From the NCBI GenBank assembly GCA_964187785.1, contig OZ076412.1, forward strand, positions 16,616,001-16,680,000: 64,000 nt of DNA, given 5' to 3'. Positions 9,040 to 64,000 of the stretch are shown piece after piece (within the stretch, counting starts at the first letter, position 1; every line of letters begins with the position of its first letter). The stretch comes from Amphiscolops sp. MND2022. Its lineage: Eukaryota. The translations under genes and the position numbers were made by a program. The notes under the pieces are model-generated. The model was not told the DNA's origin. It did not search any database and saw nothing but the letters and a program-made list of their open reading frames with translations.

Positions 9040-9617
9040 AAGTGCTTTAATTGTCGTGACTTGGCGCGAGGTGTTCCAGTATAGCTTTGCGGTCTTGCCA
9101 CACTGTTCGGCGTAGTTGTCTATTTCCCATGTTCGTACAAGACCAATCGTGGACTACAGAGGATGCTTCTAGCACGGTCACGGGGTTCTCGAACGTATAA
9201 GTGTGTTTATCCAACAAGCGAATTTTGGCTTGACGAAAGAAAGTTATAGCCAGTAGCTGTAGCCAATGTTGACTAAGAAATTTTCCGCGATATATCTGCT
9301 GGATGGAAACAAATGGTGTCTTCGAACTCTACGATTGTGCGTAAATTCTCCAGACAAATCAATAGAGTTCCGGGATTCACTGGTGATGTTTCGTCTAGGG
9401 AGGTGACTAGTTGCCACCAACCAGCGGTTGGGTGATATAGATCTCCGGGAGGGGAAGTCATACCATAATGTTGCAATAGCTGGTGCGCGATGATACAGCG
9501 TACCACAGTTACTTTCGTGTCCTCTGGCTCTACTTTCCCAAACACCATCGTTGGTGTAAGTGGGGGAATAATGGCAGCTAACGTGAACTCTAATTCGCCT
9601 TGTCGTGCCATGTCCAC
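9040..9617 (-). pseudogene. Upstream accessory ORF fragment of Gypsy 1, possible second macro-like repeat
   Basis: VTVVRCIIAHQ..WWQLVTSLDETSPVNPGTLLICLENL..ICFHP, broken by a frameshift near 9273; weaker resemblance than the downstream ORF. Confidence 0.35.
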
Positions 9618-9834
9618 TCTTTGAAACGGTAGGTAGGGCCGTCCGTAGGGGATGTTTCGTGCATTCCTTTTGATATGGTGTCTAGTGGCGGAAAAATTCC
9701 TTGTTCGTTACTTGAATACGTTTTTCTATCGTTATCAATACATGATGTATTAACTTAATCTCCTGGTGTTTGGCTTGAACAGCAAGAACTTTATGTTGTG
9801 CATACTTTGTACTTGTCTGATGTTTCTGGGTCAA

Positions 9835-42600: not shown

Positions 42601-44071
42601 CTTGTTATTTTTTTCCACCGATGCTTCTGTTTGTCCAATAAATTCGATTTGATGATTATTTACTTCTCGATAAGTGGTTATTAATGGTTCCACTTCAGTT
42701 GTTTTGTTGCTTAAACAATACGGGATTAGTGTGACTGTTGATCCACTGTCTATAAGGAATTTGTTTGGTCTCTCGTTGACCAATAGTGTTGTATTATAGA
42801 AGACCTTCTTGTTTTTCCCGTTTATCTTCTGAGTTTTGTTCTAATCCCAATTGTCTTCTACTGCTGATGATGACTTTCTTTCGATGTGTTGTATTTCCTT
42901 CATTGATCTGCATATCTTTTGGTAATGTCCTCTTCTTTTGCAGTTCCCACATTCTGCGGATTTCGCTGGACAGTTGTGCATTCTTGGCCAGTTTGGTGCA
43001 CCGCACTGCCCGCATCTGTTATCTCTGTATTTTGCCTTTCGACTGTCCAGTTTTTTTGGGTCTTTCGTAACTGAATTTATCTGACCACTGATCTGAATAT
43101 TTCTTTTTTATTGCCGATCTTGAATGTGTGGTATTTCTTTACCATTGTTCGAGATCTTTGCTTCGTTTAGTCTGTCGTACATATACTCATGTATCAAGTC
43201 CGTAATTACGTAATTGTCTCGAAGGTCATGTCGCTTTTTCGCGTTTTCTTCTTCAATTCATAATCACCCGTTGAACTTCCGATCGATAGTGATAGAAGTT
43301 TTGAGGCGATTGATTCTGCGGGGGTAACGTTTTCGAAATCGCAATTCTTCTTTACCTGTAGGATTCTTGTCCAGACGTCTTCAGCCGTTCAATTTTCTGT
43401 CTTGAAATTCCAAAAAATCGGCTCGACTGTGGAACTTGTTGCGTTCTGGAATGAAATGTAGTCTGAATAGGGAATACAATAGGTTTATATCCATTCTGTT
43501 CGGATCATTATCTCGAACGGTCCGTGTCAACTTGGTAATTGCAGATTCGCCCTGTGCCCATATGAATAAAATTTTAATCCGTTCCTCGAGTTCTGTTCGA
43601 TATTGTTCCATTATTTCTCTCTCGGTGGTCACTATGTTCAGATCGATGTTTTGGGTGATCTTTATGTTTTGTGTAAGTTTGCGCCACACAGTTTGGCTTC
43701 GTGGATTCCGCTTTTTTCGAATGTGGGTAAGGTGATTTTCTGATGTGTTTTCTCGTTTTTTGTGGCTCCTCGATCCGAGCGTCTCCATTTGAAGAGCTTG
43801 TGCTCTCCAAATTTTTGTCATTTTCCATTGTTGTCCAATCTGACTGCGCCATGTTCTATACTAGGAAGTAAGGGAAAATCGGCTTGTAACAATGTATTGA
43901 TATCATGTTCTAATTACAACTGATTAAAGTCGAACGTATGCGTATGATAATAATAATATACATGTACAAGCAGTAGTGAAACTCAAGAGCTGACAGGTAC
44001 TTTACTGTCTAAGCTTAATGTTGACCTCTGATGATCTGAACTTAAATTGTGACGTATTACATAATGTCACA
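36105..44071 (-). mobile_element. Gypsy family 3, full length but decayed, inserted in a Gypsy 2 LTR
   Basis: LTRs 43852-44071 and 36105-36329; PBS TGGCGCAGTCAG; PPT AAGGGGGGAG; TSD ACTGG/ACTAG; gag knuckle CGNCKRRGHYQKIC; FLIDSGS; IALDSRKL; TTDACTK; ELDFIEP. Confidence 0.9.
37800..41761 (-). repeat. ~2-kb internal tandem duplication within Gypsy 3 pol
   Basis: 37800-39789 is repeated at 39790-41761; junction CTTGGGGTTTAAT|GAAAAAACG. Confidence 0.92.
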
Positions 44072-46884: not shown

Positions 46885-47086
46885 ATGTCCGATGATGACA
46901 GTCAGAAAATCATCTCAAGTCTGACCCCTGATCAAATTGCAGAGTTCAAAGAGGCCTTTGACCTTTTCGATGTGAGTGGCAATGGGGCCATCGGCTTTGA
47001 GGAGCTACAGACATGTTTGACCTCCATGGGGTTCTCCCCTGACCCCGCAGAGATCAAAGCTATGATTGACGAAGTCGACGAGTCAG
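46885..47086 (+). CDS. Calmodulin/troponin-C-like EF-hand protein, first coding exon
   Basis: MSDDD..LTPDQIAEFKEAFDLFDVSGNGAIGFEELQTCLTSMGFSPDPAEIKAMIDEVDESG; acceptor TTTCAG at 46846; donor GTCAGT at 47087 inside EF-loop 2, a position that also carries an intron in calmodulin genes. Downstream exons not found. Confidence 0.85.
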
Positions 47087-47457
47087 GTCAGTGGCAAAAT
47101 TTTATCAAAATTCATGCCTAAATTTTATCTGAACATGAATGATTCTTGCAAAATTTTGATGCATTAACCGCTGCACTGTTAAGCATCTTGAATGACGAGA
47201 GAAGTTTAGAATGAATGGATAATTGCTAAAAATCATTTTTGCATGTGTTTGTTGTTCTATTTTAATATCCAGTGAAGTGAAACAATTCTTTAAAAAGTTT
47301 TTACAGTAAGTCTAATTTTGATGTATTTTTCTCCACTCATTTTCTACCAGTTGCCATGATTTGCTTTTTGCCTCAACAAATGAAGAAACCTTTAATGATT
47401 TGCAAAGTTGTACAGTTTCTCATTATGAATTAGTTATCACTTGGAAATCATTACCAA

Positions 47458-48154
47458 TATAGCGGACAGCAAACAGGAAATGAATTTTTTAATACATGTG
47501 AGACTTCATACACGTTACATATACACATCTATATATTGAAAAATATTAACAGCGTTGCTTAATATACATTGTAACAATTGTTGTGCACATTTTACTTTTT
47601 TTAAAATATTTTACAAACAATTATCCAGGCAGTTCCAGGCAGTGTGCATTTTAAAAAAGCCTTGTGGTCGTTTCTAAAAATTCAGCTGCCTTGCAGTAAT
47701 AAATATTTTGTTGAGTCTGATTCAGCTTCCCAATTGTTCAGCCGCCCCCTTATTTCAGCTGCCCCTTATTTAAAGCTGCTCTTATTATTTTATGCGCCCA
47801 ATTCAGCTGCTCCTTTATTAACATTCATCAAAAGCCCCACTCTTACCCAGTGCAGGATTAATTATTTATTCGTTTCTTGCACCTGCAGAAGTATCTTCAG
47901 AAACCGAAAACTATCACAGCCATAACATCATCCATCAAGCCAAATGTAAGTTGCTGTGTGTTACTTAATAATTTTGGTCAGTAAATATCGTTCTTTAAAA
48001 TTGAGTTTTCATTTTCTTATAGACTTTTTTTTGTTCTTTTTTTAGAAATATCCACTAGTCACTTTTAAAAACAAAATATATCCATTTACCCCAACAATCG
48101 CCCTGCGCATCGAAACTTGAAACGAATTCAAATCTAGTAAAAAGCGATTGTTAA
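47458..48154 (+). repeat. 5' LTR (697 bp)
   Basis: Direct repeat of 59355-60051; 2 mismatches seen (GTGTG/GTTTG; AAACTT/AAAGTT). Confidence 0.97.
47946..47951 (+). promoter_or_regulatory. Splice donor GTAAGT in the LTR, preceded by AT
   Basis: Perfect consensus donor: CCAAAT|GTAAGT. Confidence 0.65.
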
Positions 48155-48156
48155 AA

Positions 48157-48174
48157 TGGTGACAAGGGTGGGAT
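48157..48174 (+). promoter_or_regulatory. Primer binding site (18 nt, tRNA-Leu-like 3' end)
   Basis: TGGTGACAAGGGTGGGAT = reverse complement of ATCCCACCCTTGTCACCA; 2 nt after the LTR. The tRNA identity is an inference. Confidence 0.85.
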
Positions 48175-48561
48175 ATTTGTAAAAAGAGAAGTTTTTTTTA
48201 CAAAAAAACAATAAAGTAACTTAGAACCCCCATCAAAACATTCTTAGTCCTAGACCCGATCCAAAAATTTTTTTTGAAATGTGCCATTTCCTGGTTCGCC
48301 AGTGTTGCCCATAAGATTCCCAATCCGGACATGGTCCGTGCCTAGTTTTCCAGCTCAATGCTGTGACTTTCCGCTTCGGCGTGTCTCAGGCTTTAAAATG
48401 GCACATTTGACCCAATGCCCTTAAGTTTTAAGAAGTTACACGGTAAGTGCTTGTCATAAAACAAACAGTAGCCAATTTTTTGTAACATTTCTATCAAAAT
48501 AGTTCCGTTTTCTTTTTGATAACCTAAATTTTATTAACCGCCGCGAGTTTTTTTTGTTGAT

Positions 48562-48831
48562 ATGCCTTGTGCTCACAATACGCATTCTCACCTACCGTTG
48601 TACGTTTTTCCCCAACGACCGCTTCGACCATCAAGTCCTCCGCCCTCTTACAGCGAAACACGTGAAAGACCGATATTCACGCCCTGTTTTTTAAGTTTTC
48701 TACTCTTGATCCTCTGTTTTGCGCTTCTCTTGACCGTTTTAGCCCTTTGTGCGATGTCGTACGAAATCAACAAGATAAATATAACTTGTAAAGCACTTCA
48801 AACCCAAAGAGTGGACTATACGTCTCTGTAG
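48562..48831 (+). CDS. Leader ORF-a, 89 aa, PPxY motif plus single transmembrane segment
   Basis: ATG start; PPPSY; FLSFLLLILCFALLLTVLALCAM; NIT sequon after the TM. Confidence 0.45.
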   Translation: MPCAHNTHSHLPLYVFPQRPLRPSSPPPSYSETRERPIFTPCFLSFLLLILCFALLLTVLALCAMSYEINKINITCKALQTQRVDYTSL

Positions 48832-48841
48832 GAGCGGCCTA

Positions 48842-49240
48842 ATGTATACTTTTAGCATACCTGTTTCCGTTTTGTCAAACACACCGCCTCAAAACTTCGT
48901 TATTCCTTGCTACTTCTGCCAAGTGAAACTTTTCAAAATTCCATTATCGCATCAACCAGAACGTCGTTTTACGGCACATGAACTGTCGATTCATTTGCGT
49001 CTTGAGGCTATCCACAATTGGCAACATCGAAACGTTTGTTCAACTTTCCCGTATGGTCGTGTTGATAACAATGCAAGTGTAAAAGCTTCCTGTGCGTCCT
49101 TTTTCCCTCAATTATCCAATATTTGGGCTTCTCATATTCAATTTCTAGCAATACACGTAACGAATCCATTCTATTTGGTCTATCCCGACTGCAAACCACC
49201 TAGTCTCAATTTTGGTCCGCTGCGAATGGATCGCATGTGA
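48842..49240 (+). CDS. Leader ORF-b, 132 aa, unknown
   Basis: ATG 10 nt after the ORF-a stop; ends just before the gag ATG; Cys/His-containing (CYFC). Confidence 0.35.
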   Translation: MYTFSIPVSVLSNTPPQNFVIPCYFCQVKLFKIPLSHQPERRFTAHELSIHLRLEAIHNWQHRNVCSTFPYGRVDNNASVKASCASFFPQLSNIWASHIQFLAIHVTNPFYLVYPDCKPPSLNFGPLRMDRM

Positions 49241-49281
49241 AACGTTCTAGACCTAACGTAGACTTTAAGCGTTCAAATACA

Positions 49282-50502
49282 ATGAGCACTCAACCAAGCA
49301 CCCCCACAACGGCCACCTCGACAGCGGTAACCAATACCACTACAACCCCAGTTACTAGTGGTGGTGCAAGTAGCTCCCAAGCACCAGCACAAGCACCTAC
49401 CGTGGGTTCTACAACTCCTAACACTAGTACAACCCCAACAGCTTCCTTTTTCACTCTGCCTGGCGGTAGACAAAACCCAACAAGTGTTCCATACATAGCC
49501 CCGCTTCCGTCATGTCTGATGCCAGAGTCTTTCACAGGAAAAGGTGATTTCGAAGATTACCTGCAACAATTTAACACAGCAGCACTTCTCTCAGGCTGGT
49601 ATTCGAACGCACACGATAACAGACCACATTATTTTGCGTTGCGATTGAGAGAAAATGCTTTGCATTTCTACACTACGTTGTCTCCATCACAACAAACTAA
49701 CTTCGATATGCTCGTTGACGCGTTCCGCCAGAATTACACAACTAATGGCGATATTCTGAAAGCAAGATTGAAAGCCGCGAAGCAGCAACCCAACCAAGAT
49801 ATTTCATCTTTCCTATGTGACGTTCGGACGCTGGCGCGTCGTGCATATCGAGATCATCCTGCTATGATTGATCCGGTAGTTCTGACGTGCTTCATTGAAG
49901 GGTTAAGCGACAAAACGCTTCGATGGGAGCTCCGAAAAGCCAAGCTAGCCACAGCGGATGATGCTTTGTCCTTGGCTATGGAGCTGAATTCGTTCCTGGA
50001 GATTGAGAACGGAAACCCCCAAGCCGCTCAAACAGTTAACCGAGTTAGTACTTCTTCTGAAGCGGAGCCATCAGCGTCCAAAATTATGGCTGATTTTGTT
50101 CGATCATTACAAACTGAACTTCAGTCGTCAACGTATCGGTCCAATAATGATTTCCATCAACGAGGAGACACAAAATCATCAAACAGAAATGATCACTCGA
50201 GATCGCAGAGTAATGATTCCAATCGGAGTGGCCAGTCAGTACGATTTCAGTCGTCACAAGGACGCGAACGACCAAATAACGCAGGCAGATCTGACAAAAC
50301 ACAAAAACAACAGTATCGCCAAGATTCCCCCCATCCCAAGAAACAAGGCAACAATAACAACACGCAAAACAATCGGAAGCCGTGCGAGCGTTGCACACGC
50401 AAAAATCATACAACGAAGGAGTGCAAAGCTTGTTTCAATTGTTTGAGAGTCGGTCATTTCCAGAATGAATGCAAGGCTCCCAAAAGGGAACATTTAAACT
50501 AG
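49282..50502 (+). CDS. gag: Gag with capsid-like core and two CCHC zinc knuckles
   Basis: PESFTGKGDFEDYLQQF..W; CERCTRKNHTTKEC and CFNCLRVGHFQNEC; first ATG at 49282. Confidence 0.95.
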   Translation: MSTQPSTPTTATSTAVTNTTTTPVTSGGASSSQAPAQAPTVGSTTPNTSTTPTASFFTLPGGRQNPTSVPYIAPLPSCLMPESFTGKGDFEDYLQQFNTAALLSGWYSNAHDNRPHYFALRLRENALHFYTTLSPSQQTNFDMLVDAFRQNYTTNGDILKARLKAAKQQPNQDISSFLCDVRTLARRAYRDHPAMIDPVVLTCFIEGLSDKTLRWELRKAKLATADDALSLAMELNSFLEIENGNPQAAQTVNRVSTSSEAEPSASKIMADFVRSLQTELQSSTYRSNNDFHQRGDTKSSNRNDHSRSQSNDSNRSGQSVRFQSSQGRERPNNAGRSDKTQKQQYRQDSPHPKKQGNNNNTQNNRKPCERCTRKNHTTKECKACFNCLRVGHFQNECKAPKREHLN

Positions 50503-53500
50503 AAATGTCTACGCTAGCGGGTCAGAGCGCAGACAAGACCACAAACCGAGGCCCGCAAATTCAGACTCTTAACTCTGTGGTGGATCACAGAAGTGTATTC
50601 GTCCAATTATCCATTTTTAATACGGTGATTGAGGCTGTGTGTGATAGTGGAGCAAGTGTGTCTTGCCTGAGTTCTGATGCATTTGGGAAATTGAAGAACG
50701 GGAAGAAATTAGAGCTAAACCCGTCAGACACGAAGCTAGTAGCAGCCAACAAACAACCTATAGTAACACGCGGCATTGTGCAACTACCTTTGCAAATCGG
50801 TCCGAGACATTACGAACATTCGTTTCACGTTCTGGAGCAAGCAGAAACTGACTGTCTACTCGGCTTAGACTTCCTCAAAACTCATAAATGCGACCCGTTG
50901 TTTTCCCAAGATATTCTGCGTCTGGATGAAAAGACGACAGTCCCCCTGTATCATCGTCAGCTCACAGATGCTAAGACAACTGTGTTCAGGGTGGTGGTGT
51001 CCGAGACAGTTTCGGTACCACCACGACATACAATGATTGTGCCAGCGCACATCAAGGATTGGAAACGCCCATTGAATGAGGGTGTAGCAATTTTCGAGCC
51101 GCACGAACGGTTCGATGGCTCAAAAGAAGCAGTGGCACCAAGTATTTTGTTCAACTTTGCTGAGGAAAACATCCCGGTGACGATCGAAAATTCTGGAGAA
51201 GAGCCACTGATCTTGTATGAGAAAACAACTTTGGGTACTTCAGAAGCAATCCCTGATTTACCCATACAAAACGTTGTAACCGAAACAAAAAGCTTGAAGT
51301 CTAAAATAGACGAAAAGGACGAATCGTACGATTTGAAAAATGTAGTGGATGGAGTTGATCCGGAAATTCCATTCAAAACAAAACAGAAATTCGCAGAACT
51401 TGTTTACGAATTCGAAGATGTGTTTTCGCAAAACCAATGGGACATTCGTCGTTGCGAAGCTACAACACACAAAATAAACGTATACCCCGGATCAAAGCCG
51501 ATTAAAATTCCGAATCGCAGAATGCCCCTCCACTATAAACAGGATCTCCAAGAGAAATTAGACGCGTTCCTGGACAAGAGGTTAATAGCTCCTTGTCACA
51601 GCCCTTACAGTGCACCCGCCATGCTAGTCCCGAAGAAAAACGGAAAACTCCGCCTCGTCATTGACTACAGACAATTGAATAGTCAAACAATCAAGTCTTG
51701 TTGGCCAATCCCTTCGATTGAAGAAATTTTTGACACTCTAGATGGAAGTTCAGTCTTTTCCACTATAGACATGAGTTGGGGATTTTATCAGCTGCCCTTA
51801 GACGAATCAAGTCAAGATTATACTGCTTTCAGCACACCTTTTGGTTCCTTCAAATGGCTTGTAATGCCGATGGGACTCACAAACAGTCCACCGACGTTCC
51901 AAAATTTAATGGAAATCGTTTTGGCGAAACTTATCTGGAAAACAACAGTCCCCTACCTTGACGATTGTATCATCTTTGCCGCTTCCCCGGAGGAACACTT
52001 AGAACGAGTCAGGGAAGTTCTAGGCAGATTTAGACAAGCCAACTTGAAAATAAACCCCCTAAAATGCGAGTTTTTCCGCACCAAAGTCCACTTCTTGGGC
52101 CATGTCATCAGCAAAGAAGGCCTTCAAGTTGATCCCACAAAAATTGCAGCCGTTAAAGAGTTTCCGGTCCCAATTAACCAGACCCAGGTGAAGTCATTCT
52201 TGGGCCTTTGTTCCTACTATAGACGTTACATCAAAAATTTCGCTGAAATCGCTCGTCCCTTGCATAAAGCGAGTGAAACCAACTCGCCTTTTAAGTGGAC
52301 AACTGAGGCAGAGCAAGCGTTTGAAGATCTAAAAGCACGACTCCTCACAACACCAATTTTAGCCTTTCCAACAATGGAAGATCCTTTCATCCTCTACACG
52401 GATGCCAGCCAACTAGCAATGGGAGCCGTTCTAGCCCAAGTACAAAATGGCCAGGAACGTGCTATTTGCTATGCATCAAAGGCATTCTCCAAATCCCAAT
52501 CAAAGTACTCAGCGACGAAACGAGAACTTCTCGCAATGGTCCATTTCACTCGGTACTTCCGACATTACCTACTCGGTAGAAAATTCAAAATTGTCACAGA
52601 CCACAGTGCACTTCGCTGGTTACACAATTTCAAGGACCCCGACGGTCTCATTGCACGTTGGATTGAAAAACTAGCAGCTTTTGATTACGAAGTGCAACAT
52701 AGACCAGGCAAATCCATCGGACATGCCGACAGTCTGTCCAGAATACCAACTGAATCCGTCCAATTAACGCAAGAATGCCGAACAGGAGTCCCAGGTGCAA
52801 CAAAGACGAAGAATTGCAACAATGACGAGGAATGGCCCAACGCACAATCTAACTACAGTATTCACCTATTGCCTAGAGATACAGCATCAATACCACTCCA
52901 AGCTATCATTGAACTCAAGGAAAAAGCTAATAATCACAGCAAAGTTAAAACCGGCGAACTTCTCGAACACGAGCAACCACAAGAAAAGCCTCTACAAGAA
53001 GAACTAGTCATTACAGAAACAGGCATTGTCAAGAATCGCGAGGTGAAGGGCGATTTGTTCAGTTCTTCGGAGTCCCTAGCTCACTGTATCTCAGCTGATT
53101 TTAAAATGAGTTCTGGAATAGCCCGATCATTCAAAAGGAAGTTCCCAGCACAGTATCCAGAGGACTTATCAAAGCAAACTGTGCCACTTTGGGTACAACC
53201 ATTACCTGGTGACGGCCGTTTCCTGTATCACTTGCTGACTAAGGAACGTTACTACCAAAAGCCAACATATACTTCGCTTCGAGCTTCTCTGGAACACATG
53301 CGTAGCCATGCTGAAACGAACGACGTCCTAAAGATTAGTATGCCTCAAATAGGCTGTGGAAATGATAAACTTGACTGGGATTTGGTTCGCAGACTCATCC
53401 GAGAAGTCTTTGACGGATCCAATGTATGTATAACTATTTATTTGCCTCCATCAATTTCACTTGAGAGCGAAGGCCCACCCGTAGAAACCGCTAAAGATAA

Positions 53501-55409
53501 TGAACCAGTGCATGCGGACATTGATGTCCGCAATGCTCAAGATGAGGACGAGGCCCTGAAGATCGTAAAAGAATGGGTTCGCAGGGGTCGTGTGCCGCGG
53601 AATAACGACCTACAAGGAAGTCCCGAGTTAGCATGGAAGCTGTACAATCAATTCCACAGTTTATATCTGGCCAATGACGTCCTTTGTCGACGGTATGAAC
53701 CAGTTGGAAGTGAACTTCCGTACCTACAGCAAATTGTTCCCCGTACCTTGGTAGAACATATCCTAACAAACTTGCACTCTTCCGCTACCAGTGGACATCT
53801 AGGTTTAGCCAAGGTGATGGAGAAAGTTCGACAGCGTTTTTGGTGGCCTGGTTTCAAAGAGGATATCAAGCTTTTCATAAAACGTTGTTCCGAATGTCAG
53901 CGACGCTCGGATCCTCCTAAAACACATCGTCATTCCCTTGTAGAGTGGAAAGCTAGTTATCCCTTTCACCACATTGGAATCGATTTCATGGGCCCATTGC
54001 CGGCCTCGAATGGAAACAAAGTAATTCTGTTGATCGGGGATCATTTCACAAAATGGTATGAAGCAATTCCCTTGCCAGATCAGCAAGCTACAACAACGGC
54101 TACCGCTCTTATCGAACATTGGATCTGTCGATTTGGTTGTCCCTACAGCATACATAGTGATCAAGGACGTAATTTTGAGTCCAAGTTGTTCCAGACGCTC
54201 ATGACAAGCCTTCACATTGACAAAACAAGAACAACTGCTTTTAGGCCCCAGTCTAATGCAGTGATCGAGCGAATGAATCGAACAATCCAGAACATGCTAG
54301 CAAAATGCGTAAACGCTGAACAAAGTAACTGGTCCCAACAGTTACCCTACGTAATGATGGCCTACCGGTCATCTGTACATGAATCAACCGGATATTCGCC
54401 TCAATTTCTTGTTCATGGGCGAGAAATTTCCTTGCCAATCGATTTGATGCACCCTGCACCTGAAGCCGAAAAACCAATGTCGCCTACGGATTTTGTATAC
54501 AATCGAAAATTGGCCTTCCAAAGAGCTTTCGAACTAGTGCGAGCCAACATTAATAAAAACCAAAAACGTCGCAACGCCATTTACAACGAGAAGATCCATG
54601 GTCCTACCTACGAACAGGGACAGAAAGTGTTGCTCCACACACCAGTGGTCCCAGTTGGCCAAACAACCAAGTTCCACAACCCATGGCGTGGTCCATATGT
54701 GATACTTGACTGTTTCAATGAGGTCACATACAAGATAAGAGAATTGTCTACGTCCAAAGAGCTGATCGTTCACTACGATAGGTTGAAACCTTTTTGCGAA
54801 AAACCAGCTACTTCAAATGTGCCTACTGGAAATACTAGCTTAACCCAGCCCACAAAACCAGTTCACTCCAATGTCCCAACACGGAATAACGACTTGAACA
54901 CCACACCACCTGAAACCTCGCATCGATGCTGCATGCATTTTCAACAGCCACCACTGCAGCCTATGAATCTCCACAGCCCTGCTCACCTAAACCACCAGAC
55001 TACTCCAACGCCACAATCAACTAGCCACAATGCTCAGTCACCGACCCAAACCCGAACTCCCGCTTTCCTCTCCGGTAATCAGCATTCCCAATCTTTTCAA
55101 TCTCCTGGCGTTCAGACGATGGCCACTCCCGCAACTCCTTCAGTCGACAACCCTAGTTATCGTCAAGCACCAGCATCCCATTCACCTTTGTCAAACGAAT
55201 CCCGAAACATCGTTGAAAACGCTGCTGTTCAGTTTCGAGATATGATAAACAGACCATACAATCTCCGCGCAAGTACACGCACACAGCGATTGGCGGAACC
55301 CCTGTGTAATTCCTCAATACCTTCTGAACTAACCGATTTCAACTCGCCGCCACTGCACAGCATGCCACATTCCACCAAACGTTCCAAAAACTATACAAAA
55401 AAGAAATAA
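50469..55409 (+). CDS. pol: Pol: protease, dUTPase-like remnant, RT, RNase H, macrodomain, integrase
   Basis: CDSGAS; YLDD; YTDASQLAMGAVL; GDLF..LAHCISADF..LLTKE..MPQIGCGND; H..H..CSEC, IDFMGP, HSDQG, IERMNRT, WRGPY. 1646 codons with no stop. The dUTPase-like call (VPPRHTMIV region) is weak. Confidence 0.97.
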   Translation: MQGSQKGTFKLEMSTLAGQSADKTTNRGPQIQTLNSVVDHRSVFVQLSIFNTVIEAVCDSGASVSCLSSDAFGKLKNGKKLELNPSDTKLVAANKQPIVTRGIVQLPLQIGPRHYEHSFHVLEQAETDCLLGLDFLKTHKCDPLFSQDILRLDEKTTVPLYHRQLTDAKTTVFRVVVSETVSVPPRHTMIVPAHIKDWKRPLNEGVAIFEPHERFDGSKEAVAPSILFNFAEENIPVTIENSGEEPLILYEKTTLGTSEAIPDLPIQNVVTETKSLKSKIDEKDESYDLKNVVDGVDPEIPFKTKQKFAELVYEFEDVFSQNQWDIRRCEATTHKINVYPGSKPIKIPNRRMPLHYKQDLQEKLDAFLDKRLIAPCHSPYSAPAMLVPKKNGKLRLVIDYRQLNSQTIKSCWPIPSIEEIFDTLDGSSVFSTIDMSWGFYQLPLDESSQDYTAFSTPFGSFKWLVMPMGLTNSPPTFQNLMEIVLAKLIWKTTVPYLDDCIIFAASPEEHLERVREVLGRFRQANLKINPLKCEFFRTKVHFLGHVISKEGLQVDPTKIAAVKEFPVPINQTQVKSFLGLCSYYRRYIKNFAEIARPLHKASETNSPFKWTTEAEQAFEDLKARLLTTPILAFPTMEDPFILYTDASQLAMGAVLAQVQNGQERAICYASKAFSKSQSKYSATKRELLAMVHFTRYFRHYLLGRKFKIVTDHSALRWLHNFKDPDGLIARWIEKLAAFDYEVQHRPGKSIGHADSLSRIPTESVQLTQECRTGVPGATKTKNCNNDEEWPNAQSNYSIHLLPRDTASIPLQAIIELKEKANNHSKVKTGELLEHEQPQEKPLQEELVITETGIVKNREVKGDLFSSSESLAHCISADFKMSSGIARSFKRKFPAQYPEDLSKQTVPLWVQPLPGDGRFLYHLLTKERYYQKPTYTSLRASLEHMRSHAETNDVLKISMPQIGCGNDKLDWDLVRRLIREVFDGSNVCITIYLPPSISLESEGPPVETAKDNEPVHADIDVRNAQDEDEALKIVKEWVRRGRVPRNNDLQGSPELAWKLYNQFHSLYLANDVLCRRYEPVGSELPYLQQIVPRTLVEHILTNLHSSATSGHLGLAKVMEKVRQRFWWPGFKEDIKLFIKRCSECQRRSDPPKTHRHSLVEWKASYPFHHIGIDFMGPLPASNGNKVILLIGDHFTKWYEAIPLPDQQATTTATALIEHWICRFGCPYSIHSDQGRNFESKLFQTLMTSLHIDKTRTTAFRPQSNAVIERMNRTIQNMLAKCVNAEQSNWSQQLPYVMMAYRSSVHESTGYSPQFLVHGREISLPIDLMHPAPEAEKPMSPTDFVYNRKLAFQRAFELVRANINKNQKRRNAIYNEKIHGPTYEQGQKVLLHTPVVPVGQTTKFHNPWRGPYVILDCFNEVTYKIRELSTSKELIVHYDRLKPFCEKPATSNVPTGNTSLTQPTKPVHSNVPTRNNDLNTTPPETSHRCCMHFQQPPLQPMNLHSPAHLNHQTTPTPQSTSHNAQSPTQTRTPAFLSGNQHSQSFQSPGVQTMATPATPSVDNPSYRQAPASHSPLSNESRNIVENAAVQFRDMINRPYNLRASTRTQRLAEPLCNSSIPSELTDFNSPPLHSMPHSTKRSKNYTKKK
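50493..50540 (+). promoter_or_regulatory. -1 ribosomal frameshift signal
   Basis: T TTA AAC heptamer directly before the gag TAG; pol is in the -1 frame; stem GTCTACGCT/AGCGCAGAC begins 7 nt downstream. Confidence 0.85.
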
Positions 55410-55489
55410 CTTCAAATAGTTGCATTTTATTTCTCTCTCCAGGTCATTTCCCATCACCAATGGCCTAACAAGGCTCCTCTGTTTTTCAG

Positions 55490-57836
55490 GATTTCCTACT
55501 TTCCAAACTCTCAACATTTCTGGTTTCTCTTTCTGTTCGTCCGTTGGTCGGTCCTGATCTTTGCGGATGTGCAGTTCACAACACACCTCAACGATGACCT
55601 GGAAAAACCCGTATTCAAGAAAGGTGCAGCGTTTGTGTTCAAATACCAAGCTGTTACCTCGGAGAGCGAAAGCAAAGTCCGCGTGTTCTCTCCCTTCCCC
55701 AAGATGCCTCTAATCAACATTACCAATGCCATTAACATGATCAATGCCTTCCAGACAGCCCCTCGAAGCATCGGAGGTATGTACATCAATACAAACTGCA
55801 AGTTTACAGACGTTAATGACACCTATGACCTCCTCCTGCAACAACTTGTGACAAGAGTCAATTTCCTGCAAACAGAGTTGGCAGCAGCTCAACAAGAGGA
55901 AGACACTCTTCTGGAAGTTGTGAATTCTTTCATTCCACCAGCTGTTAGACAATCTGATGACATCGCACGACCACGTCGAGCAATTGCCGCTATTGCTGCA
56001 ATCGCAGCAGGTGCCGGAATGGTCTTGGGTGAACCAATCAAAGACGCCGCTTGTAGTGCGCTTTCTATATTTAACCTCTGTCACACCAATGAAGATCTGA
56101 GTCGCGACGTGGAACGCATAATGAGCACACAGCAAGAAATTGTTGATACACTGCAGCGTGTTCAAACTCGAAACGACAAGAATTTCTTCCTTCTAGGAAA
56201 CGAGATTAAACAGACCCAGGAAAGTGTCCAGAAACTAAAAGAAAGTGTCGGTCTCCGCTTCCAACAAATGGAGTTTTACCTAGTTAATGCTACTCGCTAC
56301 TTGGCTGCGACTAGCCTTGAGTGTGATAGAGTGATTATTCGTCACCTTAGCCTTCAGCAATTCTTGCGAAATTACGTCTATCAGCTAGGGACACTTTACA
56401 CTCATCTCAAGTCGTACCGTGCAGCGTTTTACGCTTACCGCATTTCGCTCTACTCCACCATTTCCTCGTTAGCTAGTGGCTACATCACACCTCAGTTTCT
56501 TCTGCCTCAACAAGTGGCGCAAATTGTCAAAGACTTAGCAGATGACGAAGTAAAGCGAGGCACCAAACTGTCCCCAGCTATTCGACCTGGTTTTGAGGCA
56601 ATATACTATGAGATACAATTAGTACTCGAAGTAACTTTGATACCACGTGGTATATCTGTCATTCTTGGGATCCCAATGAATTCAAAGTCGTCGACGTTTG
56701 ACATTTACCATGCCACGCCTCTGTATCAGCCCAACAATGACCAGAAGACTGCGTCGCTCTTCAATTTTGCGAACCCTTTTTTGGCCGTATCTACTGACAA
56801 TAGTAGATTTGCAGAACTCGGTGCTAATACGCTGCAGCAATGTTCGGGTAACAATCGTATCAAATTATGTAGAAAAGGCTTCTCGACAACAACCGATGAA
56901 ACTCTTCTTTGCTTAGGATCCTTGTTCTATAACTACGATGTTCCCGCCTTACGCAATTGCGAAGTCCGCGCAGTACTTTTACCCGACGCTCCTCAGGCAT
57001 TTTATTTGGCGGATGGAATGTACCACGTCATATCGCGGTCTCCCACCCTCAAATTCAAAAACGATAGCCAAATTGACGGCCTTTCTATCTCTACTATCAC
57101 CTGTCAGGCGTGTGTCATACGCCCTAGCTGTTCGAGTACACTGTCTTTCAACCAGGGTGAACTGGTTCTTCACCCTGACATGGATTTTTGTGAGACCCGA
57201 CCGGAGCCTTTTCTTGCGTCGATTGAGCTGACACCGTCTTTGAATCAAGTCTTCGCGCATGTACCCGCCATTGGTAGCGCCGAATTTCAGGCATATTCTA
57301 CTAGTGAAGCTCGTCAGTCAGTTCTTGGCAGTCTACGAATGGAACTAGCCGAACTACCTGACGTCCAACACATGTCGCCGGAGACTCTAGATCAACTGAC
57401 AGAGCCAATCGCTAAGTATTATTCTTCGATCTCGCCGGCCACATCAGCGGCTTTACAGTCATATTTACCCACCCGTACTGCTTTTTTACTTTCGTCATTG
57501 TCCATTACAATGTCTATTTTAACATTTTCTATAAGTTTTACTTTGTTTAGACGTCATTGGCAGCGTCTTTTTACCAATCCTCAACGCTTTTTCCGGGCTA
57601 CTTCCGGTAGATTCATTAATATAGTCGAATCAATTACCGCGGAGTATGATTTGACCAATTCTCCATTTTTGTATTTGACGGACGCTGAATTCCGCGCACT
57701 GATTTTGCTGGCTCGCGAAACCATTCGTCAAGCTGAACCGAAACCATCTAATTACACTGCACCCAACGCCCCTACACTTCCACCACGTGTTTATCCTAAT
57801 ATTAGTGCGCCTACTTATGAGTCTACTTCGACATGA
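55490..57836 (+). CDS. env: Env, class I F-type fusion glycoprotein (predicted 782 aa after splicing)
   Basis: Signal-like HFWFLFLFVRWSVLIFA; furin site RPRR (55968-55979) then AIAAIAAIAAGAGMVLG; heptad region; ITPQFLLP motif; Cys-rich ectodomain; TM AFLLSSLSITMSILTFSISFTLF; tail with YPNI. Confidence 0.9.
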
Positions 57837-57908
57837 TTTAATTGCTTAGCACATTTCTGTCTCACTGTCAATTTCAGCTTCTTTATCAACTACTTAGGAT
57901 TTCCCTTC

Positions 57909-58195
57909 CTAGATGCTTTCCTACGCAGCTAGTGCCTGTTTTACACGTTTCCGTGTTCCGTTACTTTCCCTTAGGTTGTCTTTTCCTTCCTAGTTGCTTC
58001 ACTACGCAACTAGCGCCTGTATTGATACACGTTTCCGTGGTGAATCTCTTTTCGCTAAGCTGTCTTTTTCTCCTAGTTGCTTCGCTACGCAACTAGTGCC
58101 TCACAACACACGTTTCCGTGTCCGCAATTAAGTTTTTTCCTAATTGTTTAAACAATTAGTGTCTAGCAGATGCGTTTCCGCATCCTAAGTAGGAT
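57909..58195 (+). repeat. Three ~82-bp tandem units with embedded hairpins plus a 20-bp palindrome
   Basis: CTAGTTGC-N8-GCAACTAG at 57990 and 58073 (variant at 57909); CACG-TTTC-CGTG in each unit; CTAATTGTTTAAACAATTAG at 58140-58159. Confidence 0.85.
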
Positions 58196-58242
58196 TTCCG
58201 TACAAAGTGTAATCGGTGCAATCAGTTTTTTTGTTGTTTCAG

Positions 58243-59314
58243 GTTCCAGTTTCCAGCAGCTCCAGTTCCAGCGCCCTCCCTCCTCAGCAGCGGTCGCGTG
58301 CAGCCTCTGGCAGAGGGATATGTAGTCCGCTTGTTGGACAAAGACGATTATCGTATCAAGAGAATAAACCCCGCTACACAAACTGTTGTGCTACAAAAAA
58401 TTAATTCAAGTAATCGTTGCTTTGCTCGACCAGCTACGGAAATCTGGCTTCCTCCTCCAAGCAGTAACAGCCTGAGCGTGGAAGTGGACTGCCCTCCCCC
58501 TCCAGCAATCTGTGATTGCTCGCCAGTACCCCCTAAATTAATAGTGGACACCTGCGATGTAGCAGTGGATGCGTCCCTCGACGCTGACGACAGCATGGAA
58601 CTCTTAGTATCAGAGTTTTCTTCGGTTGGCGAACTCAATAAGGGTTTTGAAGAAGCCCGTGCAGCAGCTAATAAGGCTCGCATCGAGTGTGAGCATACGT
58701 TCGACCTCCTTTGCGAGGAAATGACTCTTCGGAAGGCAAAGGAAAAGGAAATTCATGAAGCAAAAATCGAGCTCGCTGGTTTACAAACCAACATTGCTTC
58801 TCAAGTCGTCGCCCTCGCCAAAAAAGACAGTGAAATAGCCGCCCTGAAGAAGCGCCTCAGTGCCCTCAGCGACGAAAACAGCTCTTTGCTGCAACACAGT
58901 CTCCAGCAAAGCGAAGAACTCTCTAACCTTAAACTAGCCGCCAACAGGGTTTCAGATGCCCATCTAACCACTGACATGCTAATTTATCAACTTTCCACAT
59001 ATACTCCTGAACTCGATTTCGCAGATGAGAACATATTCTTTGATATACTTGGCCTACCACCCACCGCCGATGTCGAAAAGATCAATCGTCATGCTAGACA
59101 TCTTTTAAGACTCGTACACCCCGACAAGAACCCTTCCATCCCAGCCGAAGTGTCCCAACTGGTCCCCTGCCTTAAGGAAGCGAAAAACGTCCTCACGGAT
59201 CCCCGGCTCAACAAAGTATACCAGTGTTGCGGTATGACAGGTGTTCGCCGGGCCCGTCGTAACTTACGGACCTGCATGGATTGTGACTCCCACATGTCGG
59301 ACTGGTTCGAGTAA
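58243..59314 (+). CDS. ORF4: coiled-coil plus J-domain (DnaJ-like) protein with Cys-rich tail (predicted 357 aa after splicing)
   Basis: FFDILGLPPTADVEKINRHARHLLRLVHPDKNP..LKEAKNVLTDPRLNKVY; heptad-rich middle; CC..CMDC tail; acceptor TTTTTGTTGTTTCAG at 58242. Confidence 0.88.
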
Positions 59315-59340
59315 TTTGGCTGGCGGGGACGCAGCCTTTC

Positions 59341-59350
59341 ACGGGGGAGG
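59341..59350 (+). promoter_or_regulatory. Polypurine tract
   Basis: ACGGGGGAGG, 4 nt before the 3' LTR. Confidence 0.8.
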
Positions 59351-59354
59351 TTAG

Positions 59355-60051
59355 TATAGCGGACAGCAAACAGGAAATGAATTTTTTAATACATGTGAGA
59401 CTTCATACACGTTACATATACACATCTATATATTGAAAAATATTAACAGCGTTGCTTAATATACATTGTAACAATTGTTGTGCACATTTTACTTTTTTTA
59501 AAATATTTTACAAACAATTATCCAGGCAGTTCCAGGCAGTGTGCATTTTAAAAAAGCCTTGTGGTCGTTTCTAAAAATTCAGCTGCCTTGCAGTAATAAA
59601 TATTTTGTTGAGTCTGATTCAGCTTCCCAATTGTTCAGCCGCCCCCTTATTTCAGCTGCCCCTTATTTAAAGCTGCTCTTATTATTTTATGCGCCCAATT
59701 CAGCTGCTCCTTTATTAACATTCATCAAAAGCCCCACTCTTACCCAGTGCAGGATTAATTATTTATTCGTTTCTTGCACCTGCAGAAGTATCTTCAGAAA
59801 CCGAAAACTATCACAGCCATAACATCATCCATCAAGCCAAATGTAAGTTGCTGTTTGTTACTTAATAATTTTGGTCAGTAAATATCGTTCTTTAAAATTG
59901 AGTTTTCATTTTCTTATAGACTTTTTTTTGTTCTTTTTTTAGAAATATCCACTAGTCACTTTTAAAAACAAAATATATCCATTTACCCCAACAATCGCCC
60001 TGCGCATCGAAAGTTGAAACGAATTCAAATCTAGTAAAAAGCGATTGTTAA
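59355..60051 (+). repeat. 3' LTR (697 bp)
   Basis: Near-identical to 47458-48154; followed by TSD ACCAA. Confidence 0.97.
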
Positions 60052-60084
60052 ACCAAACTTAGCTTCTGCTCAAAGTTCAATCCA

Positions 60085-60793
60085 TTATTTTCTTCGGATA
60101 CTATCGTTTCTGGCAGCATTTACGAAATCAACCAGTTTTATAACCAAAAAGATTAGCATTGATATAAATATCAGACTCAGTAGCATAAGCTTAACGTCAA
60201 CCACAGTCCGTTTTGCTTTCTCAGAAGCTCCGTTAACTGGTATAGTTTGTAATGGCAACGATAATTGCATGTCATTCCACCAAAAACATGCGTTTGGCGG
60301 GTACCCCATTTTCTTGAACAGCTCATATGGATCAGCCCCTCCTGCGTTGTACTTCAAAATTTCCAGCACATCTGTTTCTCGCACAAATTTTGGACAATCC
60401 GGAAGCTGGTTTCTAAGTTCGTCCAGCTGGAAAAAATAATCAGCCAATTTTAGCTGGTAAGATTTGACGTCTTTATCACCCGCAAACCATTGGGGTCCCT
60501 TGTACAATAAATCATGTCCCCAGTTACTCCACATATCTGTATAAGGGGTTCCAATTTGCAATTCAATCATTTTATTGCCGACCGATTCTTTTACAAGCAA
60601 GATCAGATGAATGCGTCTGTATCCAATCTCTGTGTATTTGCCGGCTCCGGGACACATTCCATAGCATTTGGTAGTATTGACCTCAAAGTGGGCTGAGTCA
60701 TTTGAAACCAAGTCTTTCAGTCTCAGCGCTTCGTCAACTGTTTGACACGTCAGCCTCATACCAATAATGTCAGTTAAATCCGTCAGTCGCACG
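60085..60793 (-). CDS. Terminal exon of a RelA/SpoT (p)ppGpp-synthetase-domain protein with C-terminal membrane anchor
   Basis: DIIGMRLTC, GYRRIHLIL, IELQIGT, MWSNWGHDLLYKG in canonical order; TTTCAG acceptor at 60799-60794; hydrophobic LMLLSLIFISMLIFLVIKLV near the C-terminus. Confidence 0.85.
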
Positions 60794-61959
60794 CTGAAAC
60801 ATAATCACTATAGATAACGTTGTAACTTGAAAGTGACCCACGCCAATTTTTCTAAACTTCTGTCAATCAAAAGCTAGTTTCATTTGATACTTCAAACTTT
60901 TTTTTAATTTTTCGAAGAAGTAAATTTCCGAATAAATTGTCAATAGATCCGCATCAGAACTATTACTAAAACTCCTGATGGACTGGCTGCCAAATATAGA
61001 ATGAAGCTTTCATGCATCTTGTGAAAAGTCGGATACTCAAAGGAAATATAAATGACTGAAATTTTCCGTGAACGTTTCGTACAATCATTATAAAAGCAAC
61101 AGGCAACCTTCAAAAACGTGTTTTTGTATTAATTCGGATGAAAAGCTACAGCGGAGAACTATATAGATAGAAAGCAATTCATCTGCAATTGTATTTTCTC
61201 AATTTCTTCGAAGCACTTAAAAAAGTTTTTATAAAGTGATTGTACTCAGCATTTTGGTACCTTTGGTAAAAGAAGGTCAGGTCAACTTCAAGTCTTTCAT
61301 AAGTCGTACAACAAGAAATGACCAATGATGCAACTTTCGAATTTGAAAAAGAATTTTTACACTGGAAACAATCACGAGACTTGAGTTAGAACTTTATGTT
61401 CCAAAGAAGTCGCATACCCTTGCACACAAAGGTGAAACTCGTTTATTGAACTGAAAGTAATTCAAAGGGGACCCTTTAGTGTTTTTTCGAACTTTGTAAG
61501 CATAGAAAATATTTATTTTAGCACGGGACTTGAACCCACGTGCATGCAGTGGAACTAACTCACCAATGTGAGAAGTCCGCGTTATCAGCTAGTTCAAGTG
61601 GAAACTTTCCACCAGTGCTTCTAGTAAGGATTGGCTGAAACTGGGGAGAAAAAGGTGGAAAAATGTTCCAGTAATAAAACTGAAGGAAAACTATAAATCA
61701 CAACATTGGTTGTAGCTGATTATGATTCTGTAATTCAGATATATTTAATCGATTTGACCCACTAGATATTAATGTGTGACTGTTATACGATGGTTCCCTT
61801 TCGAATGAATAAAAAATTGAACAGCCAATAGAAATTGTTTTGTAACAACATCATGTTGTAATATAGAAAATATAGAAAAAAATATAGAAATAACAATGTA
61901 ACGCTGACGAAACGCAAATGCAAAAACAAACCTTAAAAAAACACATTTGACTGCAATTA

Positions 61960-64000
61960 ATGCTGACAGAACATTCAAATAAAAACTTTAAAAAACGTGT
62001 GGTAGAGGGGTTGACTTTTCTGTATAATAATATAAGATCAGTATCTGCAAATTTAGAAGATCTTGAAATATTGGTTGCACAAACAAAGCCGTCCGTAATC
62101 GCATTAACCGAAACATGGTGGAAAAACGAAAATGAAGCAGGACTGTATTGTCTCGAAGGATACCAAAGACCTTTCGCTAGCACCAGAAACCGCAAACGAG
62201 GTGGAGGTGTAGCAATTTATGTTACATCGGACCTGGAAGCTGAATTACTTCACACGGATGAAGCCTACGAGTCATTATCTGTAAAAATTAGTGACTTCAA
62301 AAAGAAAAAGAAAATAATAGTTTCTTGTTTCTATTGTGAACCGTCGAGGAATAGAAGTCAGTATCTGGACCATGTTGAAGAAGTTTTGGATAAAAATGGT
62401 GAAGGTATGCAGATAGCTTGTGGAGACTTCAATATTGATTTGTTAAACGAAAACCTTGCAGCACGGATAACGTTAGAAAATTTGATGACAGCCCAAGGGT
62501 TGGAATTGGTTAGCTTGCGACAACCTACAAGAGAAACTGCTACATCTAGTACTTGCATAGACTCCATATACAGCAATATTCCGGTGCAACTAACGCAGAT
62601 TAAAAAAACAACATTCTCTGACCATTACAGCTTAGAACTGTCTTTCGAAATTTTTTATGAAATTGCGGAAAACATCTTTGAATATCGATCACTCAAGAAA
62701 TTAGAAGACTCTTTTTACTGTGAAAAATTCCTTTTCTTCTTGAATCATTCGTTGGGTAAAATTAATGAACAAGATTCAGATGCCGAATCATATCTAGAAG
62801 AGATCGCGCATGTAATCAAAGATTCAACTGATAAATATTTCCCAACCAAGCAAGTGAAACGCCATGAACCCAAAAAGTCTTGGATAACAAATCGTATTAA
62901 GAGGCACATAGCAAATAGAGATAAACATTATCATTTATGGTTAAAAACAAAATCATCTGTTGATTACGAGAAGTACAGGAAAAAAAGAAATGAAGTCAAT
63001 ATGGAAATTAAAAACGCAAAGCGGAATGAAGTTCAATCTAGAATTGACCGCAATAATTCGAGAGAATTTTTCAGATACATAAAAAAGGTGAAAGGCACTT
63101 TGAATCAAGTAGCAAAATGTGATTTATCTGCAGAAGATTTTAATAATTATTTCTTAACTGCTGCTGATACCTCAGACACAATTTTAACTCATCGTTTTAA
63201 AAGTCAGCAGGTTGAACAACCGCAATCAATATTCATGCGCCCAGTTACTGAGGATGAAGTTTCGAAACACATTTCCACATTGAAAAACAAAAAATCTGTT
63301 GGCATGGATTGCATTGAGGTCGCCGTATTAAAGAAAGCTTCCCGAATTGTTAGTCCTTATCTAAAAACTGCTTTCAACAATTGCATATATGCAGGAGTGT
63401 TTCCTCAAAGTATGAAAATTGCTAAAGTAATACCAATTTTTAAAGCTGGTGCAACAAGTTTAGCTTCCAATTACAGGCCGATTTCTATTCTGGGTAATTT
63501 ATCAAAGCTCTTCGAGAAGGTAATACACAGAAGATTGATGAACTATTTTGAAAAATTTGGAATTCTTTCGGAAAATCAATATGGGTTCAGAAAAAAGAAA
63601 GATTCTATCCAAGCCGCAACATCACTTTTTAAAGAAATAGAAGCAAATTGGAGGTCCAAAATTAAAACGAACTCTGTTTTTATTGATTTCAGGAAAGCTT
63701 TTGATGCAGTTGATCACAGCGTTCTGTTGAATAAATTGAATCGAATCGGTATCAGAGGAGTTTCTCATAAACTCCTAACGAGTTACTTAACGAATAGGTG
63801 TCAGTATGTGAAAATTGAGGATAAATGCTCATCCATGAAATTAATAAAACGTGGAGTCCCACAGGGATCTATACTTGGCCCTCTCTTATTTCTTGTTTAT
63901 ATTAATGATTTGGGCGCCGATGAAAAATGGCAGAGTAAAATAATAAAGTATGCGGATGATACAGTTATGATCGAAAAGCTAAATACAAAGTCTGATGATA
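61960..64000 (+). CDS. LINE ORF2 (APE endonuclease plus RT), L2/CR1-like, open to the window end
   Basis: NIRS, LTETW, RGGGVAIY, GDFNID, TCIDSI, SDH; NYRPISIL, QYGFR, DFRKAFD, GVPQGSILGP, YADD; no stop seen on manual translation. Confidence 0.95.
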   Translation, partial: MLTEHSNKNFKKRVVEGLTFLYNNIRSVSANLEDLEILVAQTKPSVIALTETWWKNENEAGLYCLEGYQRPFASTRNRKRGGGVAIYVTSDLEAELLHTDEAYESLSVKISDFKKKKKIIVSCFYCEPSRNRSQYLDHVEEVLDKNGEGMQIACGDFNIDLLNENLAARITLENLMTAQGLELVSLRQPTRETATSSTCIDSIYSNIPVQLTQIKKTTFSDHYSLELSFEIFYEIAENIFEYRSLKKLEDSFYCEKFLFFLNHSLGKINEQDSDAESYLEEIAHVIKDSTDKYFPTKQVKRHEPKKSWITNRIKRHIANRDKHYHLWLKTKSSVDYEKYRKKRNEVNMEIKNAKRNEVQSRIDRNNSREFFRYIKKVKGTLNQVAKCDLSAEDFNNYFLTAADTSDTILTHRFKSQQVEQPQSIFMRPVTEDEVSKHISTLKNKKSVGMDCIEVAVLKKASRIVSPYLKTAFNNCIYAGVFPQSMKIAKVIPIFKAGATSLASNYRPISILGNLSKLFEKVIHRRLMNYFEKFGILSENQYGFRKKKDSIQAATSLFKEIEANWRSKIKTNSVFIDFRKAFDAVDHSVLLNKLNRIGIRGVSHKLLTSYLTNRCQYVKIEDKCSSMKLIKRGVPQGSILGPLLFLVYINDLGADEKWQSKIIKYADDTVMIEKLNTKSDD

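Follow-up and report, generated by a model that had tools for sequence, protein, structure and literature searches.

The DNA analysed here, referred to as the window, is a stretch of 64,000 nucleotides from Amphiscolops sp. MND2022 (assembly GCA_964187785.1, contig OZ076412.1, positions 16,616,001 to 16,680,000). It contains a Ty3/gypsy (Metaviridae) element with six open reading frames (ORFs) between two long terminal repeats (LTRs): two leader ORFs, gag, pol with an embedded macrodomain, an envelope gene (env), and a J-domain gene termed ORF4 (Table 1). A preliminary description of the letters alone had taken this element for a very young, potentially infectious lineage with accessory genes, in a combination that it did not recognise.

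As that description had stated, gag, pol, and env are uninterrupted, with 406 amino acids, 1646 codons, and 808 codons stop to stop, respectively. The structural features expected of a Ty3/gypsy element are all present, namely an LTR pair, a primer-binding site (PBS), a polypurine tract, a target-site duplication, and a pol gene with the order protease, reverse transcriptase (RT), ribonuclease H (RNase H), integrase. The catalytic motifs of pol are in place, and its best solved relative is the Ty3 Gag-Pol (E 2.6e-102), the best retroviral RT scoring E 4e-34. The slippery heptamer at the end of gag is conserved in all 11 close copies, and also in subfamily B, one of the diverged subfamilies (A, B, and C) of the family; full-length RNA is strongly predicted to yield Gag and, by −1 frameshifting at this heptamer, Gag-Pol.

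The near-identity of the LTRs reported earlier is confirmed (697 bases align without a gap and differ at two positions, both by transversion), whereas their extent needed correction. An A directly follows the previously proposed LTR end in the window and in all 10 sibling copies fetched; being invariant, it is part of the LTR, which therefore measures 698 bp and leaves a 4-bp duplication, CCAA. The duplication of 5 bp (ACCAA) is ruled out, since its first A is an LTR base in 10/10 siblings, and the element ends at 60052 rather than 60051. A 4-bp match was found in the window and in 9 siblings, the sole miss being an internally deleted copy. The LTR pairs of the 10 siblings differ by 0–3 substitutions and 0–2 gaps; the burst that produced this multi-copy element is therefore young. 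In sequence, the PBS complements the 3′ terminus of a host tRNA-Leu(TAG) gene at both loci scanned. Two PBS alleles occur among 11 copies, in 4 and 7 of them, and both are found in both LTR subtypes, a pattern consistent with the site being recopied from different primer tRNAs as the element replicates. The second allele matches a tRNA-like 3′ end with 769 exact occurrences genome-wide, and no whole tRNA gene was found at such a match in the one locus scanned. A dense tandem array of these tRNA-like 3′ ends is located at G000:C8:35.59-35.65 Mb.

The macrodomain inside pol, also noted earlier, falls under the cut-off for Pfam Macro (E 0.005) and matches human TARG1/OARD1 structures with E 2e-34. 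It retains a Lys and an Asp aligned to the TARG1 catalytic pair, which we take to be K84 and D125; the Lys motif is found in 4/4 and the Asp motif in 3/4 related pols. OARD1-like domains have also been annotated in other animal retrotransposon polyproteins. Most of the best 150 of 978 macrodomain matches in the genome lie in another high-copy group at about 50% identity, so the macrodomain is not tied to the env lineage. A search of a protein collection for macrodomains in pol gave 4 clusters among 605 candidates, a word-limited result that is uninformative on the spread across hosts. The enzyme that the pol domain resembles, TARG1, is an ADP-ribosyl hydrolase (PMC4695847). The other high-copy group is itself gypsy-like and far more numerous (cluster P0377, 923 members, many contigs), and carries its TARG1-type macrodomain often in open frames of about 835 codons, which suggests a pol interrupted at a shared place. 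A supposed macrodomain relative at window positions 8525-9046 (minus strand) was a guess that found no support on checking.

The env gene encodes a signal-like stretch, a furin site, a fusion peptide, heptad repeats, and a transmembrane anchor. Taken alone, the window Env stays below a match to Baculo_F of Pfam, which 4 of 29 family members reach. A profile of the family matches a solved fusion protein (9w4c/9w4d) with E 3e-5, as well as 1068 cluster representatives, some of them full-length proteins with an identity of about 20%; no relatives were found in viral contigs. We have moderate confidence that Env would act as a furin-cleaved class I fusogen. Gypsy elements with F-type env (env-F) are widespread in invertebrates and other metazoans (Chary and Hayashi, PMC13524379), and the "ancient errantiviruses" portrayed in the accessible text of that paper share with the present element a Ty3/gypsy pol, the gag-pol-env order, a multi-copy state, and an F-type env with furin site and fusion peptide, tRNA-Leu being among their known primers. 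As described there, their pol extras are RNase H-like, "mini", or chromodomains, in contrast to a macrodomain in the bridge between RNase H and integrase, and they have no macrodomain, post-env ORF, or leader ORFs, all of which are found here. By structure, the element is a member of Ty3/gypsy that would work like an env-F errantivirus.

ORF4 spans 373 codons stop to stop and is longer than its first ATG implies. Its structural model, with a mean pLDDT (predicted local distance difference test) of 71, shows a five-strand beta module, a proline-rich linker, a 138-residue helix predicted to be a coiled coil, a J-domain, and a Cys-rich tail. The J-domain announced by the preliminary description is borne out by Pfam, by fold matches (Z about 10, root-mean-square deviation 1.8–2.5 over 71–74 residues), and by the His-Pro-Asp (HPD) motif, present in 6 of 7 aligned ORF4 sequences. 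The N-terminal part gave no usable Atlas match and none in Pfam or PDB; the fold searches were filled by matches to the J-domain and coiled coil, leaving the beta module barely tested. A single J-domain match, unrelated, was obtained in viral contigs, and no retroelement appears among the J-domain matches listed. Virus-like agents are known to encode HPD J-domains, as in baculovirus BJDP, giant-virus DnaJ, and the polyomavirus T antigen; only the J-domain of such proteins aligns with ORF4, whose arrangement of beta module, coiled coil, and Cys tail is unmatched.

The two leader ORFs, one of them previously described as a PPxY membrane protein, are also upheld. The motif of leader ORF1 is PPSY and lies N-terminal of a single membrane helix; the helix and the following sequon are conserved in subfamily B, where the ORF is open and 47% identical. 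PPxY was found in 3/3 leader ORF1s, versus a Gag in which no PPxY, PTAP, or YPxL late-domain motif was detected in either of the two subfamilies checked. Leader ORF1 is likely a type II (N-in) membrane adaptor, as judged from its motif, its predicted helix, and the sequon after it. In leader ORF2, CxxC and HxxxH are kept in 4/4 aligned sequences, and the protein is likely to bind zinc; searches for its relatives in Pfam, PDB, and Atlas gave no usable match. In a copy of subfamily C (L053:238-1801), the leader comprises a gene resembling ORF1, a tandem pair of ORF2 paralogues, and, ahead of gag, one more frame of about 100 amino acids that has no Pfam match; with ORF2 duplicated and a frame added, this leader indicates that the set of accessory genes is able to grow.

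Two ORFs ahead of gag have been reported for MDG1 elements (PMC11952523). In the accessible text of that paper, the Drosophila MDG1 group (412, mdg1, Stalker), with its sORF1 and sORF2, resembles our element in having two short selected pre-gag ORFs, one of which encodes a small single-pass membrane protein, a description that leader ORF1 also fits. We nevertheless rule out leader ORF1 as a FAST (fusion-associated small transmembrane)/sORF2 protein. It starts with Met-Pro in subfamilies A and B and lacks the N-myristoylation motif MGxxxS/T, it has three scattered basic residues in the 25 after the helix in place of a polybasic patch, and its predicted topology, with a conserved sequon after the helix, is opposite to the N-out orientation. 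The membrane ORF also comes first here and carries PPxY, unlike in MDG1. Some sORF2 proteins likewise do without the myristoylation motif (PMC11952523, accessible text). MDG1 elements have no env, and sORF2 and env were not seen together in drosophilids according to the available part of PMC13486581, whereas a membrane leader ORF and env coexist here.

Table 1 Features of the element in the window (aa, amino acids; TSD, target-site duplication).
Feature	Position	Strand	Basis
Left TSD, 4 bp	47454..47457	.	4-bp duplication also in 9/10 siblings
Whole element (12.6 kb class)	47458-60052	+	LTR-to-LTR; host genome 1.07 Gb
5′ LTR, 698 bp	47458..48155	+	LTR pair alignment, sibling comparison
Predicted major splice donor in LTR	47942..47955	+	Exon ends AT at 47945, intron starts GT at 47946
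PBS, tRNA-Leu	48157..48174	+	Complementarity to tRNA 3′ end
Leader ORF1, 89 aa: PPxY, one transmembrane helix (46-64), N-glycan sequon after helix	48562..48831	+	Motif and helix prediction
Leader ORF2, 132 aa: invariant CxxC and HxxxH	48842..49240	+	4-sequence alignment
gag, 406 aa: capsid, zinc knuckle	49282..50502	+	Pfam domains, motif scan
pol frame: protease, RT, RNase H, macrodomain, integrase, long low-complexity tail	50469..55409	+	Domain and structure matches
Slippery heptamer X XXY YYZ, abutting gag stop; pol in −1 frame	50493..50499	+	Sequence
TARG1/OARD1-type macrodomain between RNase H and integrase	53040..53441	+	E 2e-34
env, F-type class I fusion protein	55490..57836	+	Predicted acceptor 55489/55490, motifs, profile matches
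Env furin site RPRR	55968-55979	+	Motif
Tandem repeat of ~80 bp between env and ORF4	57907..58120	+	Sequence; 3 to 5 units among copies
ORF4, ~357 aa from predicted acceptor 58242/58243	58243..59314	+	Pfam, structure model, splice-site scan
ORF4 J-domain with HPD	59036-59221	+	Pfam DnaJ E 1.4e-10
Polypurine tract	59343..59354	+	Sequence
3′ LTR, 698 bp	59355..60052	+	LTR pair alignment, sibling comparison
Right TSD, 4 bp	60053..60056	.	Sibling comparison

The preliminary description had reckoned that absence of ORF4 or the macrodomain from sibling copies would make them one-off captures. We merged the search rows into 56 env loci (70 rows) and 78 ORF4 loci (139 rows), and also typed 58 of 69 leader-ORF2 rows and 48 of 150 macrodomain rows, the other high-copy group being left out by eye. 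Only the best 63 of 852 env and 150 of 978 macrodomain candidates were scored, and a missing match does not equal absence. ORF4, macrodomain, and leader ORF2 were found at the expected places in 19 of 22 loci with an env identity of at least 84%, in 8 of 9 loci at 75–79%, and in 4 of 25 loci at 69% or less; ORF4 lay downstream of env in 21/22, 8/9, and 21/25 of these loci, respectively. The number of repeat units between env and ORF4 varies from 3 to 5 (4 copies counted), which accounts for length classes of 12.6–12.76 kb. In the two stretches read of a subfamily B copy, the order of genes is unchanged, and the frames of both leaders, gag, pol (1617 codons, macrodomain included), the beginning of env, and ORF4 are all open; env is likewise open in subfamily B. 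Compared with subfamily B, the proportion of synonymous differences is 0.71–0.88, near saturation, and that of nonsynonymous differences 0.22–0.36 for all six ORFs, env being measured on 90 N-terminal codons only. The ratio of nonsynonymous to synonymous rates of ORF4 against six nearer copies is 0.11–0.31. All six ORFs are under purifying selection at the whole-ORF level, as calculated from these alignments. With the layout recurring in diverged subfamilies under such selection, the extras are not one-off captures.

Beyond this genome, recurrence was observed for the env-ORF4 pair: four metagenome contigs carry env, and both that extend past it show ORF4. In one of them (L059), env is 46% and ORF4 25% identical, the latter with DnaJ at E 1.2e-9 and the same order of beta module, coil, J-domain, and Cys tail; the other (L060) holds the N-terminal part of ORF4 up to the contig end. 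The layout of four to six ORFs whose recurrence the preliminary description proposed to test is found again in diverged subfamilies of the genome, and as env plus ORF4 in the two informative contigs.

An intracellular germ-line retrotransposon, with env and the extras as relics or in the service of the host, would be compatible with the seven of ten siblings that are broken somewhere, and drosophilid gypsy elements commonly lose env (PMC13486581, accessible text). Yet env is 76% identical between subfamilies A and B, more than pol (65% over matched length), in the face of synonymous saturation in the part measured, and every gene is multi-copy within LTR-bounded units. We consider this explanation very improbable.

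The expression of env and ORF4 calls for a mechanism of its own. The window env has no ATG ahead of its signal-like stretch, and ORF4 conservation begins at a predicted splice acceptor, about 117 codons ahead of the first ATG, with 105 aligned codons in this upstream part under selection. The 11.4-kb interior contains four pyrimidine-rich YAG/G sites, two of which would complete an in-frame ATG (781 and 356 codons), and these two lie at the starts of env and ORF4. The env acceptor adds the signal-like hydrophobic stretch that is missing from the first-ATG product. Among 19 loci (of 20 scanned), the T-run ahead of the ORF4 acceptor differs in length, the frame being broken upstream of the acceptor and intact downstream. 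Subfamilies B and C, as well as L060, share this in-frame ORF4 acceptor. All 11 close copies retain the predicted LTR donor, which forms one of the three plus-strand blocks (E<0.01) that the otherwise unalignable LTRs of subfamilies A and B have in common. Env and ORF4 would therefore, in our proposal, both be made from spliced RNAs using one LTR donor, the last two exon bases and the acceptor base forming the ATG. The case for such splice-made starts is fairly strong. A splice-made env start is also known from Drosophila gypsy, and our literature search gave no confirming paper. ATG-based annotation truncates env and ORF4 in this element family.

Several observations limit how general the splice-made starts are or weigh against the reading of the element as a whole. 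The subfamily B env has its own ATG and its acceptor would not create one, and the L059 ORF4 has no in-frame AG/G acceptor; because of these two deviations, the splice-made start cannot be a general rule. Splicing to another strong acceptor, at 55443, would yield only an off-frame peptide of 37 codons. Two ORFs and 14 upstream ATGs precede gag, an arrangement for which the proposed expression of gag does not account, and the predicted RNA structure 3′ of the slippery site is modest. The env RNA of the Oikopleura elements Tor3b/4b starts at an internal promoter (PMC4402516, accessible text), and env and ORF4 might likewise be transcribed from promoters inside the element and translated from downstream or non-AUG codons. 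The array of repeats ahead of ORF4 might serve as such a promoter, the L062 env also has its own ATG, and L059 departs from the AT+G rule. These alternatives would not explain an env without an early ATG, an ORF4 whose conservation starts at the acceptor, or the donor among the three conserved LTR blocks, and we find them unlikely compared with splice-made starts.

As to the novelty claimed by the preliminary description, the six-gene set was not found in the literature searched, whereas its modules each have a precedent: env-F gypsy elements, MDG1 leader ORFs, macrodomains of fish endogenous retroviruses (ERVs), and the spliced CERV of Cer1. Cer1 of Caenorhabditis elegans is also gypsy-type and makes its accessory protein CERV from a spliced RNA (PMC10309623, accessible text); ORF4 is instead a J-domain protein, and the likeness is one of description. 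The Oikopleura Tor elements are non-insect env-bearing LTR elements with target duplications of 4–5 bp (PMC4402516), and the bdelloid env/ORF3 elements have variable extra ORFs made from spliced RNAs (PMC5408684); as far as the accessible texts describe them, both differ in having a single third ORF each (env, GDSL, or DEDDy), and "macro" and "DnaJ" are absent from the available part of the bdelloid paper. Macrodomain ORFs occur in fish epsilon-like ERVs (PMC4977317, citing Basta et al. 2009), which, as presented there in part, are Retroviridae with the macrodomain as additional ORFs, in contrast to the TARG1-type domain inside a Ty3/gypsy pol.

Searches of the literature, mostly by title and opening of the abstract and with Repbase, Dfam, and GyDB outside their range, returned no retroelement for which a J-domain gene or the six-gene layout is described, and no gypsy pol containing a TARG1-type domain. 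A family of the same architecture could already be catalogued in Repbase, Dfam, or a genome paper, and proteins of the element are present in public collections as unnamed predictions. However, full-text literature searches found nothing with the same layout, the accessible main text of the widest env-gypsy survey has no mention of "macro", "DnaJ", or acoels, and in its seven supplements, as far as displayed, "DnaJ" is missing and the 4 of 10 "macro" places shown are species names only. An earlier record is, in our judgement, improbable.

We estimate a probability of roughly 60% that the locus belongs to a complex Ty3/gypsy family that was active recently, has six genes under selection, and would spread from cell to cell in enveloped particles. 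Its gene set and selection are observed, unlike the roles of the extras, which we deduce from domain chemistry and hold with moderate confidence. The cytoplasmic PPxY of leader ORF1 may recruit Nedd4-type ligases and the endosomal sorting complexes required for transport (ESCRT), providing, as a membrane adaptor, the budding signal that Gag lacks. ORF4 could be an oligomeric J-protein whose N-terminal beta module selects a client and which recruits Hsp70 to it; the client would most likely be the capsid or RNA-protein complex of the element itself. The macrodomain, carried in the particle with RT and integrase, might strip ADP-ribose from them or from new cDNA, and thereby counter restriction or repair signalling of the poly(ADP-ribose) polymerase (PARP) type. 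Leader ORF2 would be a zinc-binding regulator.

The chief competitor to cell-to-cell spread with host-directed extras holds that these genes do housekeeping for the element itself, helping it to replicate through folding, assembly, or RNA handling, and do not serve counter-defence; the "host-manipulation toolkit" of the preliminary description would then be a misnomer. The macrodomain is common to a high-copy group that matches no env locus among the matches listed, CERV exports the genomic RNA of Cer1 itself (PMC10309623, accessible text), and the extras are under purifying, not diversifying, selection at the level of whole ORFs. Against this, PPxY, HPD, and a TARG1-type active site all act via host partners by established chemistry. 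We regard the housekeeping explanation as a serious possibility, if the less probable one. Other results also weigh against an enveloped, spreading family: the AlphaFold model of Env (pLDDT 46, predicted template modelling score 0.28) is too poor to show an F fold, and at such a pLDDT the Foldseek matches are meaningless; the presence of the macrodomain in the second high-copy group is as compatible with a general aid to replication as with a tool of infection; and only 2 of 10 siblings are open in all six frames, 7 having a stop or frame break (some perhaps assembly errors) and 1 being internally deleted.

The surroundings of the element hold further genes and fragments. An uninterrupted 239-codon frame at window positions 60085-60804 (minus strand) resembles small alarmone synthetases (Pfam RelA_SpoT E 2e-5, below the cut-off; YjbM structures E 1e-4). 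Its product would end in a hydrophobic stretch, and the frame has 10 matches at 8 places in the genome. It is unusual for an animal-like genome and is possibly a horizontally gained family; the element was inserted about 30 bases past its stop codon. Upstream, a calmodulin-like EF-hand exon at 46885-47121 (plus strand) has a likely splice donor near 47087, and the element probably lies inside an intron of this EF-hand gene in the same orientation. Decayed repeat fragments, judged by eye from translations and sequence, are located at 4000-13600 (−), 16400-17400 (−), 28800-31400 (+), 39900-43900 (−), and 62000-64000 (+); we presume that they are gypsy-like, BEL/Pao-like, and LINE-like.

A complex set of accessory genes is usually regarded as typical of vertebrate retroviruses. 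The family points to the same solution in Metaviridae, in that selection has preserved in it, over deep divergence, env together with a membrane protein bearing PPxY, a zinc protein, a J-protein, and a TARG1-type domain. A bolder and rather doubtful proposal is that this would be the first described "complex" metavirus lineage, an invertebrate counterpart of complex retroviruses with enveloped virions passing between cells or individuals, one LTR donor making several start codons, and dedicated host-interaction genes (a budding adaptor, an Hsp70 recruiter, and an ADP-ribose eraser in the particle). If it is true, retrotransposon cDNA in this host group would be subject to restriction by ADP-ribosylation. 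The family itself offers small parts that may be tested separately, namely the role of ADP-ribosylation in retroelement replication, a budding signal moved from Gag to a membrane adaptor, and the use of an Hsp70 recruiter to a retrotransposon.

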